Assembly (NCBI GenBank): GCA_963729605.1
Contig: CAVSNY010000002.1
Coordinates: 160,001-224,000 of the forward strand
Length of the DNA: 64,000 nt
DNA from: an uncultured Gammaproteobacteria bacterium
GTDB lineage: Bacteria; Pseudomonadota; Gammaproteobacteria; DRLM01
Direction of reading: 5' to 3'
Under the pieces are notes generated by a model. The model was not told the DNA's origin, made no database searches, and saw only the letters and a program-made list of their open reading frames with translations. A program made the position numbers and the translations under genes. Shown piece by piece: positions 26,974 through 37,419 of this stretch; positions within the stretch are counted from its first letter, which is position 1, and every line of letters starts with the position of its first letter.

Positions 26974-27453
26974 GTGACAGCGATGATAAACGCCAATGTC
27001 AATCCGCGGGTGTTGGGCTATTTGGGCCGCGCATTGAGTCATGAATTGTCTGCGGTGCAGCAGTACCTCACGCAATCGAAGTTGGCCGAGGCGTGGGGGC
27101 TGCTGGAAGCGGCCGGGCGCTTGCGCGATGAGGCGGCCGAGGAGATGAGGCATGCCGAACGCATCATCACACGGATGATCGCGCTCGGCGTGGCGCCCAG
27201 CGCCTCGCAACTGCGTCCCGCGCAATTGGGCGCCAATCTCGCCGAGTGTTTGCACAAGAATCATCGCGTCGAGGCGGAGGCCATCGCGCTCTACGAGGAT
27301 GCGCTGCGTTATTGTCAGCGTATCCAGGATCGCGACAACGGGGCCTTTTTCGAAGCGTTGTGGAACGAAGAACTCGCCCATGGCCGGGAAATGGCGCAAT
27401 GGTTCGCGACGGTGGAGTCGAGTGCGGCCAGCGGCAGGCGGGCATTTTTCTAG
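26974..27453 (+). CDS. Carboxysome-associated bacterioferritin-like protein
   Basis: LGRALSHELSAVQQY, EAAEEMRHA, EAEAIALY, EELAH di-iron ferritin-fold motifs; typical gene directly after csoS1. Confidence 0.9.
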   Translation: MTAMINANVNPRVLGYLGRALSHELSAVQQYLTQSKLAEAWGLLEAAGRLRDEAAEEMRHAERIITRMIALGVAPSASQLRPAQLGANLAECLHKNHRVEAEAIALYEDALRYCQRIQDRDNGAFFEALWNEELAHGREMAQWFATVESSAASGRRAFF

Positions 27454-27464
27454 CGAGGTGCGCG

Positions 27465-27725
27465 ATGAGCGAAACATGGCAAGTGCGTAAACGGCCGGCG
27501 CGCCTGGAGGGGCGGGTCGAGTTCGCGGACTATACCGCGACGCGGGATTTTCTCGATCGCTTGGCGGAGTTGTCCGAGCGCGAGCAGAGCTATCCCAACC
27601 TCAGTTTCGGCAGGACGTACGTCAATATCACGCTCGACTCGCCGGAAGAAGATGATGAGGTGAGTGAGGCGACCTGGCGTATCGCGCGGCTCATCGATGA
27701 GCTCGTGGCGGGGACGGGGGGCTGA
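27465..27725 (+). CDS. Pterin-4a-carbinolamine dehydratase-like Rubisco assembly factor (acRAF/Raf2)
   Basis: WQVRKRPARLEGRVEFADYTATRDFLDRL...YPNLSFGRTYVNIT, the PCD-like protein of alpha-carboxysome loci. Confidence 0.92.
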   Translation: MSETWQVRKRPARLEGRVEFADYTATRDFLDRLAELSEREQSYPNLSFGRTYVNITLDSPEEDDEVSEATWRIARLIDELVAGTGG

Positions 27726-27730
27726 GCATC

Positions 27731-28372
27731 ATGGCCGGTTCGTCACTGCTCATCGCCATGATGGGAAACAAAGGCGGAACCGGCAAGACCACACTGGCGG
27801 TCAATATGGCGGTGGGCCTGATGCGGCGGGCGCCGTCCGCGTTGCTGGATTTGGATCCGCAACGTTCCGCGTGGCAATGGTCGCGTATCGCCGAACGGGC
27901 CGCGCACGCGGCGCATGTCTACGAATGCCATGGCGATGTGGGCGAGGTCGTGGCGAACCTTAAAGAACGTTATCAGTACGTGGTACTGGATTGCCCGCCT
28001 TCGGTGCATGCGCGGGAAACGCGCGATGCGCTGCGTCTTTGCGATCACGCATTGGTGCCGGTGCAGCCTTCGCCGATGGACTTATGGGCTACCCTGAGCG
28101 TGGTGGAAGCGGTGAGTGCCGCGCAGCGCGAGCACCCTCGCCTCAAGGCGCGCATCGTGCTCAATCAATTGGAGGCGCAAACCGTATTGTCGCGCGATAT
28201 CCGCGCGGTGATCGACGAGGTGGGTCTGGCCGTGCTGAGCGCTGACGTGAGGCGGCGCGCGATTTATCGCAATGCCATGGCGGAAGGCAAGACTGTGTTC
28301 GATATGGGTGGCGCCGGCCGCGAGGCGGCGATGGAAATAGAGCGTTTACTGACGGAGGTCATAGCAGCATGA
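27731..28372 (+). CDS. mcdA: ParA-type carboxysome-positioning ATPase McdA
   Basis: Deviant Walker A GNKGGTGKT, DLDPQ.S, LDCPP, PVQPSPMDLWA; overlaps the small downstream partner gene. Confidence 0.88.
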   Translation: MAGSSLLIAMMGNKGGTGKTTLAVNMAVGLMRRAPSALLDLDPQRSAWQWSRIAERAAHAAHVYECHGDVGEVVANLKERYQYVVLDCPPSVHARETRDALRLCDHALVPVQPSPMDLWATLSVVEAVSAAQREHPRLKARIVLNQLEAQTVLSRDIRAVIDEVGLAVLSADVRRRAIYRNAMAEGKTVFDMGGAGREAAMEIERLLTEVIAA

Positions 28373-28623
28373 GCAAGAGCGATAAGACCAGCCAGAAATT
28401 ACTGGACTCGATACGCAAGACCAAGGCGTCGGCCGACACCCCGATGAATGCATCGCCGGATGCCGCGCCTGTCTCTGCGCCGGCGCCTGTTTTGAATGCG
28501 GCTGCCAAACAACCACCCGCGGAACAACGCTCCGCCGCGCAAGGCCAACAGCCACAGCCATCACAGCAACCTGCTGAGGAGCCGCGGCGCATCTTCAGCA
28601 GTCGGCGCGTATGGCCTGACTGA
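28369..28623 (+). CDS. mcdB: Carboxysome-positioning adaptor McdB
   Basis: Basic N-terminus, disordered Ala/Pro/Gln-rich middle, C-terminal RRVWPD typical of alpha-McdB. Confidence 0.88.
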   Translation: MSKSDKTSQKLLDSIRKTKASADTPMNASPDAAPVSAPAPVLNAAAKQPPAEQRSAAQGQQPQPSQQPAEEPRRIFSSRRVWPD

Positions 28624-28909: not shown

Positions 28910-29932
28910 ATGTTGAGCAATTTACTCATTCCGGCGGTGTTGTTTTTTGCCTTGGGTTTTTTGGCCAGGGTTATCAAATCGGATTTGCGTTTTCCAGCTG
29001 ATTTGGCCAAGGCGCTTTCGATTTATTTGTTAGTCGCGATTGGCTTGCACGGCGGTTACGAGCTCGGCAAATCCGACCTGTTCACCGCGATCAATTCGGT
29101 GATTTGGGCGTTGGTGCTGGGCTTCGGCTTGCCACTGATCGGCTATGCCATCTTGGTATTTTCGAAGAAAGTCGATGCGATGAATGCGGCGGCGATCGCC
29201 GCCCACTATGGCTCGGTGAGCGCGGGCACGTTTCTCACCGCAGTGGCTTATCTCGATAGCTTGCACATCCCCTACAACTCTTATCCGGTCATCATGCTCG
29301 CCGTCATGGAGTCGCCGGCTATCGTCGTTGGTTTGCTGCTGGCCGCGTGGTCACGGCGTCGCTTGGCGGCGAAGCAAGGCACTCCGGCGATCACCGCCGC
29401 CAGCGCCGACGGCAATAGCAATGGTGATGAGCGTGGCCAATTGACGCATATACTGCGTGATGCCTTCACTAACGGCAGTGTCGTGTTGCTGATCGGTTCG
29501 ATGATCATCGGTGCGGTGGCGGCGCCGCAGTCCATGGCAAAAATAAAGCCCTTCATCGAAGAGATTTTCATGGGCGTGTTGTGCTTGTTTCTGTTGGAGA
29601 TGGGCATGGAAGCGGCGCGCCGGATCGGCGATTTCCGCCGCGTCGGCTTGGCCCTGGTGGCATTCGGCGTGGCGATGCCCCTGTTGGGGGGGGCGATAGG
29701 CATCTTCGTCGGGCACTCGATCCTTGGCTTCGACGTCGGCGGCACCGTGCTGGTCGCGGTGCTGGGGGCGTCGGCGTCGTACATCGCCGTGCCGCCCGCC
29801 ATGCGGCTGGCCGTGCCCGAAGCGAATCCGTCACTGTATTTGACGCTGTCGCTCGGCGTAACTTTTCCATTCAATGTCGTGTTCGGGATTCCTCTCTACC
29901 ATACCCTCACCGATATGTTGATCGGAGCATGA
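28910..29932 (+). CDS. sbtA: Sodium-dependent bicarbonate transporter SbtA
   Basis: KSDL.FP...SIYLL.AIG..GG, AAHYGSVSAGTF, MESPAIV, FLLEMG, ASASYIAVP, SLGVTFPFN. Confidence 0.93.
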   Translation: MLSNLLIPAVLFFALGFLARVIKSDLRFPADLAKALSIYLLVAIGLHGGYELGKSDLFTAINSVIWALVLGFGLPLIGYAILVFSKKVDAMNAAAIAAHYGSVSAGTFLTAVAYLDSLHIPYNSYPVIMLAVMESPAIVVGLLLAAWSRRRLAAKQGTPAITAASADGNSNGDERGQLTHILRDAFTNGSVVLLIGSMIIGAVAAPQSMAKIKPFIEEIFMGVLCLFLLEMGMEAARRIGDFRRVGLALVAFGVAMPLLGGAIGIFVGHSILGFDVGGTVLVAVLGASASYIAVPPAMRLAVPEANPSLYLTLSLGVTFPFNVVFGIPLYHTLTDMLIGA

Positions 29933-29956: not shown

Positions 29957-30265
29957 ATGCATAGGCTGCATCCAGAGAAACAGATCACGGTGATCACCTC
30001 CGACGTGCTGGAGGATCGCCTCGTCAAGCTCATCAAGCAGCGCGGCGCACGGGGTTATACGGTGTTCCGTGCTTATGGCGCCGGCACCTCCGGCGAGCAG
30101 TCGGGCATGCTGGACGTCGACACCAACATCGTTATGCACGTGATCGTTCCTTCGGCCAAATTGAGCACGCTGCTTGACGGTTTGGAAAACTTGGGGCGCA
30201 AGGGTCATCACTTGACGGTGACGGTCGCCGACGTGTCGGTGTTATGGCCGGAAAAGTTCGAGTAG
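29957..30265 (+). CDS. sbtB: P-II-like regulator SbtB
   Basis: KQITVIT...GARGYTV..A.GAG...VSVLWPEKF; immediately after sbtA. Confidence 0.88.
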   Translation: MHRLHPEKQITVITSDVLEDRLVKLIKQRGARGYTVFRAYGAGTSGEQSGMLDVDTNIVMHVIVPSAKLSTLLDGLENLGRKGHHLTVTVADVSVLWPEKFE

Positions 30266-30293
30266 CGATCTTGAGCGGCGAGAGGGCGAGCTA

Positions 30294-31415
30294 ATGGCTT
30301 TGGTGGATATGCGCGACATGTTGCGCCATGCCTACGAGCATGGTTACGCCGTGGCCGCCTTTGAAATCGTGAGCCTCGACGTACTCGCGGCGGTGCTGGA
30401 CGCGGCCGAGCGTTGCCGCGCTCCGGCGCTGATCATCGTCGGCGATGACGACGATGCCCCGTGTGACCTGGAGGTGTTGATGCCGGCGGCGGAAACCGCC
30501 GCGCGGCGCGCGTCGGTGCCGGTGGCCATTCAATACGCACCGGTGAATTCGCTCGATGACGTCTACCGGGCGATGGCATTGGGATGCAACGGCATCGCGA
30601 TGTCACGCCGTCGCGAGACATTTCCCGAGGCGATCAAAAAGACCCGCGAAATCGTCGACTGGGCCCACGGCTGCGGTATGCCAGTGGAGGCGGGTTGGTT
30701 GTCCGCGCCGCCTATGCTTGCAGCGGACGAGGCGCATGCTGAAGAAGAGGAGGCGTGGCCTACGCCGAGCGAAGCGGCGGCCTTCGTGCAACGCGCGGGC
30801 GTGGATTTTTTTGCGCTCGACGATCCGCGCAGCGTAAAGACCAAGATCGATTTCCCGCGTCTCAAATTGATCGGCGCCGCGGTGCGCACGCCGCTGGTGC
30901 TGTACGGCGCCGGCGCATTGAGCGAAGACCAAATCAGGCGGGCGATTTTCAAAGGCGTCGCCAAGATCAGCGTCGATCCGGCCACGCTGCAGGGCCGCGA
31001 CACATCCTCGCGCACGTCCGCGGCCCGCGCGCGCAGAGCCGCCATGGGGGCCGAAGCGGAGCGGCACATGCGTTTGTACGGTAGCGCCGGCCGTGCCGCG
31101 GAAGTGCTGAGCCGCTGCGCAGCGTGGACGGTGGTGCAGCAGGTCTGGCTCTGCGGTGGCGATTCGGTCGATGAACGCGCGTTTGCGGGTTTGATGGACG
31201 AATGCCGGCGCCTCGTCGGCACCACCCCCGGCGTGCGTGGCGTTTTCGCCGGCCGCGCCTCGGCCGAGCAGGAAAGATATCGCTATTGCATCGTGTTCCG
31301 GCTGTCGCATCCCGACGCCGTGAAACACGCGCACGACGCGCTGTCGACGGTGCGCCGCAGCTTCAGCGAACGTTGTCTCGCGGTGGATGTGCCGGCGCTG
31401 GAGATTGTGGCGTAG
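30294..31415 (+). CDS. Class II fructose-bisphosphate aldolase-like protein with degenerate active site, fused to a C-terminal Dabb-like domain
   Basis: Barrel scaffold recognisable (LVDMRDML.HA...YAVAAF, AHGCG.PVEA, PSEAAAFV...GVDF.A, IDFPRL, GVAKI, GSAGRA), but HLDH reads QYAP, GxxHG is absent and LHGG reads LYGA. C-terminal ~95 aa (PGVRGVFAG...RYRYCIVFRL.HP) resembles Dabb. Confidence 0.8.
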   Translation: MALVDMRDMLRHAYEHGYAVAAFEIVSLDVLAAVLDAAERCRAPALIIVGDDDDAPCDLEVLMPAAETAARRASVPVAIQYAPVNSLDDVYRAMALGCNGIAMSRRRETFPEAIKKTREIVDWAHGCGMPVEAGWLSAPPMLAADEAHAEEEEAWPTPSEAAAFVQRAGVDFFALDDPRSVKTKIDFPRLKLIGAAVRTPLVLYGAGALSEDQIRRAIFKGVAKISVDPATLQGRDTSSRTSAARARRAAMGAEAERHMRLYGSAGRAAEVLSRCAAWTVVQQVWLCGGDSVDERAFAGLMDECRRLVGTTPGVRGVFAGRASAEQERYRYCIVFRLSHPDAVKHAHDALSTVRRSFSERCLAVDVPALEIVA

Positions 31416-31543
31416 GTGTCATTTGAGAAAGTAGACGCATAGTTCGGAAGAACTATTTGGCGCCATGCGGACGATAGGCGCGACGGCGCTGGTAACAGTC
31501 GGTACGGTCTTTGTGCTTTCACTGGTGCGAGGTGATGTAGTTC

Positions 31544-33220
31544 ATGAACCAGCTCATCGCTTTAATGCCGGCGCTGCCGGTCATCTCGGCGTTGCTGACG
31601 CATCTGTTGGCGGCGAGACTCGGCCGTCGAGTGGCGAGGCTGAGCGTCGTCGCGGCAGGGATCACGTTCGCGCTCACCGTGGTGATGCTCGGCCTGACCG
31701 TGGCTGGGCATGGCCCGGGACAGATTGCGGCTGCCGGGGATATCGGCGTTTTAATGAGCGACCCCTTGAGCGCGGTGATGGCGGTGCTGATCGCCGGCAT
31801 CAGCTTCATCGTGCACCTCTATTCGGTGCGTTATATGGCCGAAGAAGCCGGCTACGCCCGATTCTTCGTGCTGTTGGATCTGATGACGGCGGCGCTGCTG
31901 GTCATGGTCGCGGCGGGAGATTTGATCACGCTGCTGGCGGCCTGGCACATCATCGGCGTCTTGCTCTACTTCCTGCTCGGCCAGGACACCCGCAGCCCGT
32001 CGGCCTATCGCTACGCCTTTTGGACGTTTTTCACCTATCGCATCGGTGACCTCGCGCTGGTGCTGGCCGCTGCCTTGTTGTATTGGGCCTACGGGACTTG
32101 GTCCTTGCCGGAGATCTTCGCGGGCGTCGAGGCCGACCCCGCCGCCCGCAGCTTTTTCGGCGTGCCGGTGGTCGAAGCGGTCGGCGCGCTGTTGGCGCTG
32201 GCGGCCTTTGCGCGCTCGGCGCAGTTTTTACTGCATACGTGGCTGCCTTACACCATGGCGGGTCCCACCCCGGTGTCGGCGTTGATGCACGCCGGCATCG
32301 TCAATGCCGGCGGTTTCTTGATCAATCGCTTCGCGCCGATCTTCGTGCACAACAGCGACGTATTGCATGCGATCTTTCTGGTGGGCCTGGTCACGGCCGT
32401 CATCGGCTCGGTCCTGATGCTCACCCAGAACGACATCAAGAAGGCACTGGGCTACTCCACGATGGGGCAGATGGGTTTCATGGTGATGGAGTGCGGACTC
32501 GGGGCGTTCTCCCTCGCCATCTTCCACCTGATCGCCCATGGGATGTTCAAAGGTACGCTGTTTCTCGGCGCCGGCGGCGTGATCGGCGAGGCGCGCAAGG
32601 ACGACGGCGTGCCGAAGGATCACCTCTACACCTTCGTGGTGGAGAAACGCCCGGCCCGGCGCCGGCAACCCTGGCTGTTGATGGCGGCGATCACCTTGGC
32701 GGTGCCGGTCGCGGTGCTCGTCGCGGCGCACTGGATCGTTTCCGACGATTTCTTCCAGAAGCAGGGCGCCATCGTGCTGCTCTTCTTCGGCTGGATGACC
32801 GGGGCGCAGCTGCTGTTCGCGACCTACCGCATGCGCACCGAGAACGTCGGAAGACTGTTCACGCTGATCCTGTCGTCGTTCGTGGTCATCGTGCTGGGCT
32901 ACGCCTTGATCAGTCACGCCTTCGATGTGTTCCTGTATCCAGATCCGGCGTTCCGTGCCCGCATCTACGAAGCCGCCAATGTGGACGTGTTCTGGTTCGA
33001 TCTGCTCGTGGTGCTGGTCACCACCGTGGTCGTGCTCGGTTGGCTGATCACCTACTACTCGGAACAAAGCGGCCGGCGGGACAAGGACGCCGGCCCAGTT
33101 TGGATGAGCTTCTACGCCCTGGTCTCCCGGGAGTTCTATCTCGCGGATGTCTACAGTTGGGCGACGCGCGTAATCCTCGCGGCCGCGGCGAAGGTCAACG
33201 TCTGGCTGAGGTGGGCGTGA
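31544..33220 (+). CDS. dabB: DAB inorganic carbon pump membrane subunit DabB (NuoL/ND5-like)
   Basis: DPLSAVM, YSVRYM, RIGD, SAQF.LH.WLP.TMAGPTPVSALMHAGIVNAGG, YSTMGQMGFM, HGMFKGTLFL; upstream of a DUF2309 gene. Confidence 0.92.
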   Translation: MNQLIALMPALPVISALLTHLLAARLGRRVARLSVVAAGITFALTVVMLGLTVAGHGPGQIAAAGDIGVLMSDPLSAVMAVLIAGISFIVHLYSVRYMAEEAGYARFFVLLDLMTAALLVMVAAGDLITLLAAWHIIGVLLYFLLGQDTRSPSAYRYAFWTFFTYRIGDLALVLAAALLYWAYGTWSLPEIFAGVEADPAARSFFGVPVVEAVGALLALAAFARSAQFLLHTWLPYTMAGPTPVSALMHAGIVNAGGFLINRFAPIFVHNSDVLHAIFLVGLVTAVIGSVLMLTQNDIKKALGYSTMGQMGFMVMECGLGAFSLAIFHLIAHGMFKGTLFLGAGGVIGEARKDDGVPKDHLYTFVVEKRPARRRQPWLLMAAITLAVPVAVLVAAHWIVSDDFFQKQGAIVLLFFGWMTGAQLLFATYRMRTENVGRLFTLILSSFVVIVLGYALISHAFDVFLYPDPAFRARIYEAANVDVFWFDLLVVLVTTVVVLGWLITYYSEQSGRRDKDAGPVWMSFYALVSREFYLADVYSWATRVILAAAAKVNVWLRWA

Positions 33221-33221
33221 C

Positions 33222-33980
33222 ATGTCCTCGATGATGTGGCTGTTGTCGGCTTTCTTTCTGCCCCTATTTCCACTCAGCATGGGGTTCAACGCCCTGTTTG
33301 CACGGCTCCGCCACCCGCTGCTGCGGACGGCGATGCTGCTGATATGGCCCCAGATCGGGGTGGTGGCGCTTTCCCTGGTGACCACACCGATACCCGGATG
33401 GGTCCTGGCGCTGGCGGTGACGACCTCGATACTGTATGGCGTTCGGGCCCTGGCTCTCCGCGAATTGGGCCTGTGGACCAGCTTTCTCGCGACCTCCAGC
33501 TGGGCCCTGCTTTGGATATCGGCCTATGACGGTGCCGACGCCTCGACGTTGCACCTCTACGCCGCGGGTTTCAGTGTGCCGCTGGTGCTGTTGGCGCTGC
33601 TGACCGGTGGCTTGGAACGCCGCTTCGGCGCGGCGTATACGGGGCTCTATGGCGGTCTCGCCCAGGTGCTTCCCCGCTTTTCCGGCGTGTTGGTGTTCGT
33701 GGTGCTGGCGGTAATCGCCACGCCGGTCTTCCCGGCGTTTTTCGCGATGCTGTCGACGATCGTGACCGCGGTGCCAGCCGCCCCCGCGGTCGCCGCCGGC
33801 GTCGCCGTGAGCTGGCTGGTGTGGAGCTGGGCCGGGGCGCGCCTGTTGCAGGGCATGATCGTCGGGCCTGGGTGTGACTGTGAGGTGCGGGACCTGAGCC
33901 GCGCCGCCACTTGGGGATACGCCTCGGTGCTGGTGCTGCTCGCGGTAGCCGGCCTCTCGTGGATGGGGGGACTGTCATGA
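33222..33980 (+). CDS. Additional membrane protein of the DAB cluster
   Basis: Multi-TM protein with LERRFG...GGLA..LPRFS, resembling the C-terminal part of NuoM-like antiporter subunits; closely coupled to dabB and dabA. Confidence 0.75.
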   Translation: MSSMMWLLSAFFLPLFPLSMGFNALFARLRHPLLRTAMLLIWPQIGVVALSLVTTPIPGWVLALAVTTSILYGVRALALRELGLWTSFLATSSWALLWISAYDGADASTLHLYAAGFSVPLVLLALLTGGLERRFGAAYTGLYGGLAQVLPRFSGVLVFVVLAVIATPVFPAFFAMLSTIVTAVPAAPAVAAGVAVSWLVWSWAGARLLQGMIVGPGCDCEVRDLSRAATWGYASVLVLLAVAGLSWMGGLS

Positions 33981-36900
33981 GCTTGCCGCTGGGCCAAAAA
34001 CTCGGCATTCGCACCATGATTTATGTGGCCGGGGAGCCGGTGCCGTTCTTCTGGCCCATGCGCTCGTTCATCCATCACAATCCCTTGCATGGCCTCGAGC
34101 GTCACCCGTTTTACAGCGCCGTGCGGACCGGCGAGCGTCTGTTCCATGGGCGGGGCTATCTGCCGCGGCGCCTGTACCAGCGTTATCTCGGTCAGGGCAA
34201 GATAGACCGGGAGGCCCTCGCCGGGGAGCTTGCCGCGTTCCTCGGTTCGCGGGAGGTGCCCGGCCTGGATCTTGAGCGCTGGCTGATGACGCTCCTGACC
34301 GAAACACCTTTATCGGTGTGTGTGGCCACGACGCTTGCCGGCGCCGCCGACATACGAGCCGCCTTCGACAACAGGCCGCCGGGCCCCGCATCGGCGATCC
34401 CCCGAGAGGTGCTCGCGTCGCGGCTGGCGGGGGAGCTGCTGGGCGATCGGCCGGTGTACGAAGCGGTCGACGCCTTGTACGGCACGGAGATTGGCGCCAC
34501 CCTGGATGAACTGGTGGTCAAGAGCTGTCTCGATTTCTTCGACGAAGGGCAGTCCTCCTGGGCCATGCCGCAGCGCGAGCGGGGCTTCTTCGCCGCCTGG
34601 CGCGAGGTGGCGCAACGCAACGCCCGGCTGTTTCTGCGCGGACTCCATATCAACCAAATACTGAGCGTGGACGAAAGCCCAGAAGGGGTGATCGCCTATG
34701 TCATGGAGAACCTGCAGATCCCCCGGGATCGTTGGATCGGTTATTTCACCCGGGAGCTCGCCCGGCTGCACGGCTGGGCCGGCTTCATCCGCTGGCGTTC
34801 CAGCGCCAAGCACTACCATTGGACCCAGCGTTATCCGGGCGATCTCGTCGACTACATGGCGGTGCGCCTGACCCTGGCCCTGGCGCTGCTGCGCGAGGTG
34901 GGCGAGCGGCAGATTCCCTGCACGGCCGCTGCAATCGAAGAGGCCGTGCACGGCCGGCTCGAGGAGATTTATCTGCGCCACGAATTCCATGGCGGCGGCA
35001 TCGTGCCCGCCCTGGCGCACCGGGTCGAAGACGCCTTGTCGAGGGGCTCGGAACGTCACCTGTCGAAGGTCTTCGCCGAGTATGTCGAGAAGAAACGCGG
35101 CTGCGAAGCGGAACAGCAGGCGGTACGTTTACGCGACCTGGCGCTGCAGGTCGGTGAGATGGAGGCGGTCACGCAGCTCGCCGCAAATGAGTTTGCATGC
35201 CTGCTCGACCTGCTGAGGGAATTCGAAAAGTGCGAAGGCCCGATCTGGCTGAGGGCCTCGGAGGCACGGGCCATCGAGCAGTTTCTGGGTGGGGCACATG
35301 TGCAGGCGCCGCCGCAGCGGACCAAACGCCCTTTCGTCCAGGCGCTGTTCTGTATCGATACACGCTCCGAGCGCATTCGGCGACACTTGGAAGGCATCGG
35401 GGATTACCAGACCTTCGGCATCGCCGGCTTCTTCGGGGTGCCGGTGAGTTTCATGGAGATGGGCAAAGGCAGCGAGACCCACCTGTGTCCGGTATTGCTG
35501 ACGCCCAAGAACCTGGTCCTGGAAATGACGGCGGGCAGTCCGCGTGACGAGGATGCGCTCACCTTCCTGGAAAAGGCCATGCACGAGCTGAAGGAGTCCG
35601 TGCTGACGCCGTTCGTGACCGTGGAGGCCATCGGTCTCTTGTTCGGCTTCGACATGGTCGGCAAGACCGTCGCGCCGGCCTCGTATAACCGCTGGCGCCG
35701 GCGTATTCATGCCAGCAAACCGCCGACCCGGCTGCTGTTGGACAAGCTTACCCGCGAACAGGCGGATTCCATCGTGCGCACGGTGCAGCGGGCGGTGATC
35801 GTCAAGGCCCTCGAGCAGGAAATCCGCCTGCGGCCGGAGCGCATCACCGACGAACTGGTGCGGGAACTCCGCGAGGTCGCGCTGGGCCACGACGAGGGCT
35901 GCCCCAAACTCCTCGAGGCATTGGACGGCGACGCGTCCCGGGCGCAGGCGTTCATCGACCGCCTGCGGGGGCCGTACCGCATCAATCCCTCCTTTGCCCA
36001 GCTGCAACTGGAGCGGCTCGGGCGCATCGGCTTCTCCCTCGATGAACAAGCCCATTTTGTCGCGCAAGCCTTGCGGGCGATTGGACTCACCGAAGGGTTT
36101 TCCCGTTTCGTGCTGCTGGCGGGCCATGGCAGCCGCTCGGAGAACAATCCCTATGAGTCGGCGCTGGACTGCGGCGCGTGCGGCGGCAATCATGGCCTGG
36201 TCAGCGCCCGGGTCTTGGCGCAAATGGCGAACAATGCCGGAGTGCGTCAGCGGCTGCATGAGATGGGTATCGACATCGCTGCGGATGCCTGGTTTCTTCC
36301 GGCGCTGCACAACACCACCACCGACGAAGTGAAACTTTTCGATCTGGACCTGCTGCCGTCCTCCCACTTGGTGTATTTGGATCGGCTGCGCGGCGGCCTG
36401 ACGGCGGCGTCGCGACTGTGCGCGCAGGAGCGCGTGCCCAGCTTGGCCATCGAAGGGGATCGGGTGGACAATCCGGCTGCGGCCTACCGCGCCGCGCAGC
36501 GCAACGCCATGGACTGGTCGCAGGTGCGTCCGGAGTGGGGACTGTCCGGCAACGCCTACTTCGTCATCGCGACGCGGGGCCTCACCCAGGGCATGTCTCT
36601 GGAGGGGCGGGCCTTTCTCCATTCCTATGACTACCGTATCGATGAGCGGCGGCGGCTGCTGGAAACCATCTTGTCCGGCCCGCTGGTCGTGGGTCAGTGG
36701 ATCAACCTGGAGCACTATTTCTCCACCGTCGACAACGAGCGCTTCGGCAGCGGCAGCAAGGTGTACCACAACGTGGCCGGTCGCTTCGGCGTGATGACCG
36801 GCAACCTCAGCGACCTGCGTACCGGCCTGCCGTCTCAGACCGTGCTGGACAACGGCCTGCCGTATCATCAGCCGATCAGGCTGATCACCGTGATCGAGGC

Positions 36901-37090
36901 CCCGTTCGAGCATGCCCGCGCCGCGATCGAGGCGGTGGCGCCGGTCAAGAACCTGGTGCGCAACGGCTGGGTACGATTGATGGTGGTCGATCCAGAGGCG
37001 GCAGCGGTGTTTGTTTATGACGAGGGGGATTGGCGCCGCCGTTCCCTCGTCGACGCGACTGGAACGGCATCTCTGGAGGAGTCCCACTGA
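33977..37090 (+). CDS. dabA: DAB inorganic carbon pump cytoplasmic subunit DabA (DUF2309, beta-CA-like)
   Basis: WPMRSFIHHNPL.GLE, FCIDTRSE, GIAGFFG, GHGS.SENNP..SALDCGACGG, DWSQVRPEWGL, FLHSYD, GSGSKVYHNV. Confidence 0.95.
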   Translation: MSLPLGQKLGIRTMIYVAGEPVPFFWPMRSFIHHNPLHGLERHPFYSAVRTGERLFHGRGYLPRRLYQRYLGQGKIDREALAGELAAFLGSREVPGLDLERWLMTLLTETPLSVCVATTLAGAADIRAAFDNRPPGPASAIPREVLASRLAGELLGDRPVYEAVDALYGTEIGATLDELVVKSCLDFFDEGQSSWAMPQRERGFFAAWREVAQRNARLFLRGLHINQILSVDESPEGVIAYVMENLQIPRDRWIGYFTRELARLHGWAGFIRWRSSAKHYHWTQRYPGDLVDYMAVRLTLALALLREVGERQIPCTAAAIEEAVHGRLEEIYLRHEFHGGGIVPALAHRVEDALSRGSERHLSKVFAEYVEKKRGCEAEQQAVRLRDLALQVGEMEAVTQLAANEFACLLDLLREFEKCEGPIWLRASEARAIEQFLGGAHVQAPPQRTKRPFVQALFCIDTRSERIRRHLEGIGDYQTFGIAGFFGVPVSFMEMGKGSETHLCPVLLTPKNLVLEMTAGSPRDEDALTFLEKAMHELKESVLTPFVTVEAIGLLFGFDMVGKTVAPASYNRWRRRIHASKPPTRLLLDKLTREQADSIVRTVQRAVIVKALEQEIRLRPERITDELVRELREVALGHDEGCPKLLEALDGDASRAQAFIDRLRGPYRINPSFAQLQLERLGRIGFSLDEQAHFVAQALRAIGLTEGFSRFVLLAGHGSRSENNPYESALDCGACGGNHGLVSARVLAQMANNAGVRQRLHEMGIDIAADAWFLPALHNTTTDEVKLFDLDLLPSSHLVYLDRLRGGLTAASRLCAQERVPSLAIEGDRVDNPAAAYRAAQRNAMDWSQVRPEWGLSGNAYFVIATRGLTQGMSLEGRAFLHSYDYRIDERRRLLETILSGPLVVGQWINLEHYFSTVDNERFGSGSKVYHNVAGRFGVMTGNLSDLRTGLPSQTVLDNGLPYHQPIRLITVIEAPFEHARAAIEAVAPVKNLVRNGWVRLMVVDPEAAAVFVYDEGDWRRRSLVDATGTASLEESH

Positions 37091-37092
37091 TC

Positions 37093-37419
37093 ATGAAAAA
37101 TCTCAATTTAAGCCCTCTCAAGAAACTGGAAATCATCCTGGACGGTGAGCATCAGGCGTTTGTCACCGACATCCTCGACCGGGCAGGGGTCAAGGGCTAC
37201 ACCATCATCAACAATCTGTCCGGCAAGGGGCGCCATGGCTTCCACGAAGGCCATCTCATGTTCAACGAGGACGATGTGTTGATCATGATCATCGCCGCCG
37301 TGCCCGAGCACCTCGTGAATCCGATCCTCGAGGGGCTCTCGCCCTTCTACAACGAACACTCAGGCGTGGTGTTCATTTCCGATATTCAGGTGACCCGCTT
37401 AGTGAAATTCGGCGGCTAG
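37093..37419 (+). CDS. P-II family regulator associated with DAB
   Basis: LKKLEIIL...GVKGYTII.NLSGKG.HG...SGVVFISD..V.R..KF. Confidence 0.9.
   Translation: MKNLNLSPLKKLEIILDGEHQAFVTDILDRAGVKGYTIINNLSGKGRHGFHEGHLMFNEDDVLIMIIAAVPEHLVNPILEGLSPFYNEHSGVVFISDIQVTRLVKFGG

Follow-up and report, generated by a model that had tools for sequence, protein, structure and literature searches.

The window analysed here is a stretch of 64,000 nucleotides from an uncultured gammaproteobacterium (contig CAVSNY010000002.1, positions 160,001 to 224,000, of assembly GCA_963729605.1), and the subject of this report is an aldolase-like open reading frame (ORF) that lies among its genes for a CO2-concentrating mechanism (CCM). 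The gene order runs from cbbR (reverse strand) through cbbL, cbbS, csoS2, csoSCA, csoS4AB, three csoS1 genes and a ferritin-like ORF to an acRAF-like ORF (27246-27725), a ParA-like ORF, an 84-aa ORF, sbtA (28910-29932, + strand; PF05982, E 3.8e-115) and sbtB (29957-30265, +; P-II match, E 4.4e-13); the positions of cbbR to csoS2 come from blastp. The ORF in question follows at 30294-31415 (+) and encodes a protein of 373 residues plus stop, termed P0001. On its 3' side, dabB (31544-33220, +) opens a same-strand block of dabB, a 252-aa ORF, dabA and a P-II gene (31544-37419, +), which is followed by a SulP gene. The reading frame of P0001 is uninterrupted and flanked by the SbtB and DabB genes, as had been stated in the original prediction, which was made from the sequence alone. 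The ORF is separated from the sbtB stop codon by a gap of 28 nt, and a Shine-Dalgarno-like GAGAGGG can be read from the sequence at 30280-30286 (+), 7 nt 5' of the ATG. Terminator-like sites between 27500 and 38500 number 13, compared to 9.8 ± 3.1 in shuffled sequence, with no excess between genes. This placement suits a co-transcription of the ORF with sbtA and sbtB, which is therefore presumed.

Residues 1-262 of P0001 (30294-31079, +) form the triosephosphate isomerase (TIM) barrel of a class II aldolase with a degenerate active site, as indicated by Pfam and Foldseek. In a profile search, PF01116 covers residues 4-267 with 126.6 bits (E 1.8e-36), which bears out the class II aldolase framework previously recognised by eye, while the NCBIfam equivalog cut-offs are missed (best 121.7 bits compared to 383, and another 116.6 compared to 423). 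By sequence, the closest solved relatives are class IIb aldolases, with YdjI (6ofu, E 3.3e-25) followed by KbaY and the fructose-bisphosphate aldolase (FBA) of T. aquaticus. The substitutions in P0001 were read against 120 database homologues (P0002-P0121, 113 of them more distant) and against the canonical class II FBA of the same genome, which is encoded next to pyruvate kinase and has the motifs HQDHG, GTSHG, HGS and KVNIDT.

None of the five key positions (Asp, three His and Asn) is kept in P0001, and all the catalytic and metal-site substitutions listed earlier were seen in this comparison. A82-P83 (30537-30542, +) stand where class II aldolases have the catalytic Asp followed by the first Zn-binding His, LDHG being replaced by YAPV in the alignments. 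A deletion of five residues at L175-S180 (30816-30833, +) removes the GTxHG loop together with the second Zn-binding His, and L175-D176-D177-P178 stand at the site of the deleted loop. This second His is presumably H180, in agreement with the wording 'H180Q variant' in titles of Protein Data Bank (PDB) entries. The third Zn-binding His is replaced by Y204 (30903-30905, +; HGG to YGA), a position that is still His in P0002 and in metagenome relatives of about 95% identity, and the substrate-binding Asn by S226 (30969-30971, +; KIN to KIS). The MxDAS motif at a strand end and the catalytic-loop Glu of GExGYV are likewise missing. Judged by these residues, P0001 is predicted to be incapable of canonical binding of the catalytic metal, and it lacks acid/base and phosphate-binding residues. 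A sugar-phosphate sensor at the old active site, which had been proposed as one possible function, is unlikely because both phosphate-binding elements are lost: HGGxG reads YGAGA, and the K-I/V-N-x-x-T element with its substrate-binding Asn and Thr reads KISVDP.

In an AlphaFold2 model built from a 48-sequence alignment (mean predicted local distance difference test score, pLDDT, 85; predicted template modelling score 0.86), the TIM barrel of residues 1-262 is followed by a conserved linker and a β-α-β-β-α-β domain at residues 281-367, while an acidic loop of residues 140-152 is disordered. With the whole model, Foldseek retrieves class II aldolases, with YdjI 6ofu at the top (E 4e-22). The class IIb enzymes YdjI, KbaY/SqiA (8q57), T. 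aquaticus FBA (1rv8) and AgaY (1gvf) share the TIM barrel of P0001 at 25-28% identity, with template modelling (TM) scores of 0.85-0.88 on the target. They bind Zn or Co by three His and have catalytic Asp, Glu and Asn residues, none of which is present in P0001. Unlike P0001, these structures contain no Dabb domain. The linker GSAGRAAEVLSRC (residues 263-278, 31080-31127, +) is invariant across the clade of P0001, hereafter called the dead clade, and nearly so in relatives with an intact active site.

The C-terminal residues 279-373 (31128-31412, +) form a Dabb-like domain with a ferredoxin-like fold. PF07876 gives only 14.5 bits (E 0.057) on the C-terminus of P0001, below the cut-off of 25, and sub-threshold matches in two of five dead-clade C-termini and none in the other three. 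The Dabb assignment therefore rests on the fold and on the homologues: relatives aligning over 91-100% of P0001 with 39-45% identity carry both PF01116 and PF07876. When the isolated domain was compared with Foldseek, the best matches were olivetolic acid cyclase (5b0d), poplar SP1 (1si9) and At3g17210 (1q4r), with E values of 7e-4 to 1.4e-3 and TM scores of about 0.5; these matches are weak because the domain was folded from a single sequence (pLDDT 77). These PF07876 proteins are free-standing, in contrast to the fused domain of P0001. The active fusions contain the VEH(L/V)I and HPxH motifs of the family, whereas other residues stand there in the dead clade, including P0001. At the level of fold and by homology, the previously suggested Dabb-like nature of this predicted domain thus holds. 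The architecture of the fusion family is present in P0001 in a single chain, consisting of the barrel, the GSAGRAAEV linker and a PGVR-containing ferredoxin-fold C-terminus, and the profile of the fusion family (A2) matches with 497 bits over profile positions 1-393. The N-terminal M..M.DML.HAY..YAV.AF, LGCNG, GSAGRAAEV and PGVR are found in active as well as dead members and may be regarded as candidate interaction or oligomerisation surfaces.

The seven nearest database proteins (P0002-P0008), which are 54-95% identical to P0001, all lack the catalytic set. In the seven-sequence alignment A1, 137 columns are invariant, and clade-specific invariant residues (W135-L136, W155-P-T-P158, D176, P178 and T183) occupy the former active-site face. 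Among 1.84 billion cluster representatives, the dead clade is a single 50% cluster represented by P0002. DNA of dead-clade loci was available from the genome collection (L003, L004, L005 and L006) and from a metagenome (L035), the latter being the only further locus found in a metagenome scan with A1. The ratio of non-synonymous to synonymous substitution rates (dN/dS, omega) of the gene is 0.10-0.24 in 10 pairs (NG86/YN00) with dS up to about 1.5, and the least saturated pair, L005-L035, has an omega of 0.22 (dN 0.062, dS 0.276). Barrel and Dabb domain have similar values of about 0.2 each. For comparison, omega is 0.05-0.19 in pairs of fusions with intact sites, 0.08-0.16 in pairs of the HHRY subtype described below and 0.30-0.47 in pairs of other degenerate members. 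The frame is open in six of seven clade assemblies. Copies of about 95% identity were found on contigs of four metagenome runs, where the indels within the ORF are two in-frame deletions of 3 nt in the acidic loop, and a 10.1-kb metagenome contig covering sbtA through the end of the ORF has no indel in the ORF at all. Contigs of run X3 also cover the ORF; as the RNA label of this run is a guess, they are not countable as transcription. At the sequence level, the gene is thus conserved, under purifying selection and not a fresh pseudogene. Neither closest homologues that keep the catalytic motifs nor a dN/dS near 1 was seen, and the early pseudogenisation that had been offered as the alternative to a conserved pseudoenzyme is contradicted by the losses shared within the clade and by its low dN/dS.

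This conservation extends to the position of the gene. The order sbtA-sbtB-ORF is found in all six loci with upstream DNA (the window, L003, L004, L005, L006 and L035), and the genes on the 3' side vary among them. Within the host order, 5 of 12 species genomes encode the dead form, namely all four genomes of g1, including that of the window, and the single genome of g3. SbtA (PF05982) occurs in exactly the same five genomes, and neither the dead form nor SbtA was found in the other seven. As these genomes are kin, the co-occurrence may reflect a single event. Three of the five genomes of the sister genus g2, which are among the seven without the dead form, have an active-looking fusion. A prediction of a complex between P0001 and SbtB with alignments A1 and A3 gave a score of 0.00, which is evidence neither way.

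Homologues more distant from P0001, with about 40% identity and a length of 390-430 aa, are fusions of an aldolase with a Dabb domain, for which a known system exists. According to the sections of PMC2942843 on the cbb1 (carboxysome) operon of A. ferrooxidans, its 'CbbA' (ACK80290.1) consists of Pfam01116 and Pfam07876, and cbbA is the last gene of this operon and co-transcribed as shown by reverse transcription PCR. A gene table with this cbbA is also part of PMC6458275. By its domain listing, A. ferrooxidans CbbA resembles P0001 in having the same two domains and in being encoded at the end of a cluster for Rubisco and the carboxysome. The homologue of A. sulfuriphilus (L009) is 39% identical to P0001 over residues 1-343; however, Acidithiobacillus-type proteins keep all five key residues (DHHHN in L009) and reach 250-290 bits with PF01116, compared to 127 for P0001. 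The original prediction contained neither of two points that emerge here, namely that the active parent family is already in print as the 'cbbA' of Rubisco operons and that catalysis has been lost repeatedly in it.

The distribution of the family was studied in a class-level sample of 400 genomes searched with the A2 profile. Regions of ±8 kb were taken around 60 listed matches, which had been chosen as fused or long low-scoring ORFs. As 195 matches exist beyond those listed, all family counts are a floor. The five key positions (Asp, His, His, His, Asn) were scored by hmmalign, and the identification of neighbouring genes relied on blastp with a panel of proteins verified by Pfam and on one Pfam scan. 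This resulted in 61 fused ORFs among the matches listed. All five residues are kept in 28 of them, 14 of which end cbbLS-cbbX or cbbLS-cbbQO operons and 10 of which have no panel gene nearby. His180 is changed to Gln in another 6, five of them at the same position in a Rubisco-activase operon. The corresponding GTVQG motif, with Gln for the second Zn-binding His, occurs in many otherwise intact fusions, both among P0009-P0121 and in L059, L062, L063, L064, L066 and L080, and equals the change in the engineered H180Q variant of the H. pylori enzyme in the PDB.

A distinct HHRY subtype (His for Asp, Arg for His180 and Tyr for His208) accounts for a further 6 of the 61 (L084, L085, L088, L089, L094 and L099). 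In all six loci the gene lies on the 3' side of dabB, the 252-aa ORF, dabA and the P-II gene, at a distance of about 2.3 kb from the latter, and is divergent from a CbbR-like LysR gene; L103 is a truncated member of this subtype. Two residues are changed in 3 ORFs, one adjoining Rubisco genes and two without a panel gene nearby, and 2 partial ORFs were left unclassified. L096 is a split gene, the C-terminal piece of which was scored as degenerate while the N-terminal piece reads DHHHN. When L096 is set apart, three or more residues are changed in 15 of the 61, and 12 of these adjoin Sbt, DAB, cso, Rubisco, β-carbonic anhydrase or glcDF genes. Their contexts are sbtAB in the window's clade, dabA with a LysR gene in L102 and L104 (as well as in L011 of the species collection), a cbbL-cso operon with a LysR gene in L112, L113, L115 and L116, a LysR gene with β-carbonic anhydrase in L114, and cbbLS-cbbX in L087. 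Relatives without the catalytic His residues had been expected to turn up repeatedly beside cso, sbt and dab genes, and this was borne out in other lineages, with a dN/dS below 1 in the window's clade. The highly degenerate fusions L107:1753-4572 and L110:5444-7926 lie 3' of glcD- and glcF-like glycolate-oxidase genes, which ties them to the salvage of the Rubisco oxygenase product rather than to inorganic carbon uptake. In L100, an intact-site fusion stands directly 5' of dabB, the 252-aa ORF, dabA and the P-II gene, which follow P0001 in this order in the window, too. Many PGVR-bearing proteins with scrambled active-site motifs are also present among the 1.84 billion cluster representatives, of which roughly 100 were degenerate members. 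With cso genes, sbtAB and dabBA-PII as its neighbours, P0001 has the gene surroundings of the family. Its frequent pairing with a divergent CbbR-like gene suggests that the family may be under the control of a Calvin-Benson-Bassham (CBB)/CCM regulon.

In a quick IQ-TREE phylogeny of 71 rows (67 fused proteins and four short ones intended as outgroup, two of which fell inside the ingroup), the window's clade is a starred group with a stem of 1.28 changes per column. It groups with other degenerate long branches (L011/L104 and L112-L116), although weakly (support 88, fork drawn open). It stands apart from the active-looking L031 and L032 of its own taxonomic family. Orthology with these copies of the sister genus g2 was considered and rejected, because a large distance separates them from the dead clade in this phylogeny. 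Further degenerate sets are placed elsewhere, namely the HHRY subtype together with L101 and L102 and, separately, L107, L110, L111 and L114, while the degenerate L087 lies inside a starred clade of proteins with intact sites. At least five state changes are required on this tree. A single degenerate group of 27 rows is rejected by the approximately unbiased test (p 0.011, log-likelihood difference 95.7), in which the group was defined by motifs and not by the tree and which is limited by the long branches. On this phylogenetic evidence, the clade of P0001 is one of several apparently independently degenerated branches of the family.

These results make it probable that P0001 is a CCM accessory protein that is maintained by selection, is non-catalytic as an aldolase and originated from the aldolase-Dabb enzymes that close Rubisco/activase operons. 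The ancestor would have been such an enzyme at the end of the Rubisco/activase operon of a chemoautotroph. Barrel, family-specific linker and ferredoxin-like C-terminus would have been retained in its descendant, which would have lost metal binding, acid/base residues and phosphate loops. P0001 would be translated from an sbtA-sbtB(-dabB...) transcript and held by purifying selection. Most likely, it would act as an accessory protein or regulator of inorganic carbon uptake via protein contacts and not by turnover of sugar bisphosphates; this non-enzymatic action and the role in the CCM are what we infer from residue losses, fold and gene context. The original prediction is partly supported in this respect: its conserved pseudo-aldolase stands, and the functions proposed beyond it remain candidates.

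Several observations weigh against this reading. Constraint on the gene is weaker than on SbtA and SulP, for which omega is 0.06-0.15 and 0.06-0.11, respectively (SbtB 0.06-0.12; ParA, with 0.10-0.24, is similar to the gene), and the window copy is only 56-63% identical to those of its congeners, compared to 85-87% for SbtA. Among the 40 of 229 variants that were listed, 9 non-synonymous and 7 synonymous ones fall into the ORF and 3 and 14, respectively, into sbtA. The orthologue in L006 (L006:5808-6961, from a metagenome-assembled genome titled uncultured Chromatiaceae bacterium) is split at about residue 107 by a frameshift; as both pieces are otherwise intact, this is either an error of sequencing or a break that happened very recently. 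A contig of run X2 (depth 13, compared to 32 for the intact form) joins 30320 to 31428 with three letters in between; it would represent a relative from which the gene has been deleted almost exactly, with the shorter side of the junction matching over just 30 letters. No RNA run is listed among the sequencing runs that contain the ORF. The same genome encodes a second, divergent sbtA-sbtB pair (contig 3, 283456-284361, L057; 43% and 32% identity to the pair of the window) with no aldolase-like gene within 1.5 kb on either side, and PF01116 has only two matches in the whole genome. Part of this evidence, namely the omega above that of the neighbours, the L006 frameshift, the X2 deletion form and the 9:7 ratio in a partial variant list, would also be expected of a slowly decaying relic that rides with sbtAB after horizontal acquisition and is heading to loss, and the long stem and the higher omega of other degenerate pairs point the same way. 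Decay is nevertheless very improbable, as the frame has stayed open in all but one of the assemblies at 54-95% identity and dS up to about 1.5, both domains are constrained alike around 137 invariant columns, and the population indels are in frame.

Such constraint would also be explained by a new enzyme, in which the barrel has acquired a metal-independent site or pocket for a substrate or ligand other than a ketose bisphosphate. The invariant W135, L136, W155-P156-T157-P158, D176, P178 and T183, which replace the old catalytic loops, and a barrel omega well below 1 would fit this possibility, and the regular His, Arg and Tyr set of the HHRY subtype with its low omega indicates that the family can hold non-canonical sites. 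However, the only matches in NCBIfam and Pfam are to aldolases, none of the known catalytic motifs could be recognised, and the residues at these positions are unrelated from one degenerate lineage to another, so that a new site common to the family is not apparent; we consider such an enzyme unlikely. A specific adaptor or cargo protein with SbtB, the DAB-linked P-II protein, CsoS2 or Rubisco as its direct partner would be in line with the ORF adjoining sbtB in every locus, with the constant distance of the HHRY genes from the DAB-linked P-II gene and with the place of active relatives after Rubisco activase genes. Since the second sbtAB pair does without such a gene nearby, and other degenerate lineages stand beside genes that encode no P-II protein, such as glcDF and β-carbonic anhydrase, direct binding of one of these partners also appears improbable. 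The selected, non-catalytic accessory protein therefore remains the preferred reading of P0001.

More tentatively, the fusions as a whole could be a widespread but so far unrecognised family of accessory proteins for CO2 fixation and CCMs in bacteria, with a selected role independent of aldol cleavage, a wider proposal that is possible but rather doubtful. If the role is independent of aldol cleavage, catalysis would be dispensable and therefore lost repeatedly. Members of the family, often paired with a CbbR-like LysR gene, might then connect Rubisco/activase, DAB, SbtA or carbonic anhydrase modules as regulators or adaptors, and the protein of the window would be the version dedicated to SbtAB. 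It is also conceivable, though speculative, that the active members, which are encoded right after Rubisco activase genes, cleave ketose-bisphosphate by-products of Rubisco. That a CCM cluster can retain an enzyme fold which no longer has its original activity is exemplified by acRAF, a Rubisco assembly factor from α-carboxysome loci that resembles pterin-4a-carbinolamine dehydratase; the presence of acRAF in this same locus, claimed before, is borne out by the acRAF-like ORF upstream of P0001. Fold and ancestry of the two proteins are unrelated, and the analogy is one of principle only. Pseudoenzymes in CCM clusters are of a known kind, while this family with its recurrent loss of catalysis is undescribed in the literature searched; in this search, the scope of which did not include supplements, no description of a dead aldolase-Dabb protein and no aldolase gene after sbtAB was found.

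Lists of CCM parts from chemoautotrophs, including carboxysome, DAB, SbtA and SulP components, serve the engineering of CO2 fixation in crops and industrial hosts, for which missing accessory factors are a known obstacle. By a rough count, the fusion family is present in such clusters in about one eighth of the sampled Gammaproteobacteria. It is annotated everywhere as 'fructose-bisphosphate aldolase', although a large minority of its members cannot be one. Should the dead forms modulate the function of SbtA, DAB or the Rubisco operon, they would be new CCM components and also a clear case of repeated conversion of an enzyme into a pseudoenzyme. At the very least, metabolic reconstructions in which these genes are annotated as CBB-cycle aldolases are in error as regards the degenerate members.

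Three small ORFs without a Pfam family accompany these genes. The 252-aa ORF at 33222-33980 (+), between dabB and dabA, has homologues at the same position in at least nine other DAB loci (L032, L084, L085, L088, L089, L094, L099, L100 and L102) and may be an unannotated conserved component of DAB operons. The 84-aa ORF at 28369-28623 (+) lies directly 3' of the ParA-like gene, presumably the position where an McdB-like partner of the carboxysome-positioning ATPase is to be expected. A conserved ORF of about 120 aa, as in L034:10202-10564 (-), separates cbbO (or cbbX) from the aldolase-Dabb gene in many Rubisco-activase operons and has homologues in L059, L060, L061, L063, L065, L066, L068, L069, L080, L093 and L101.

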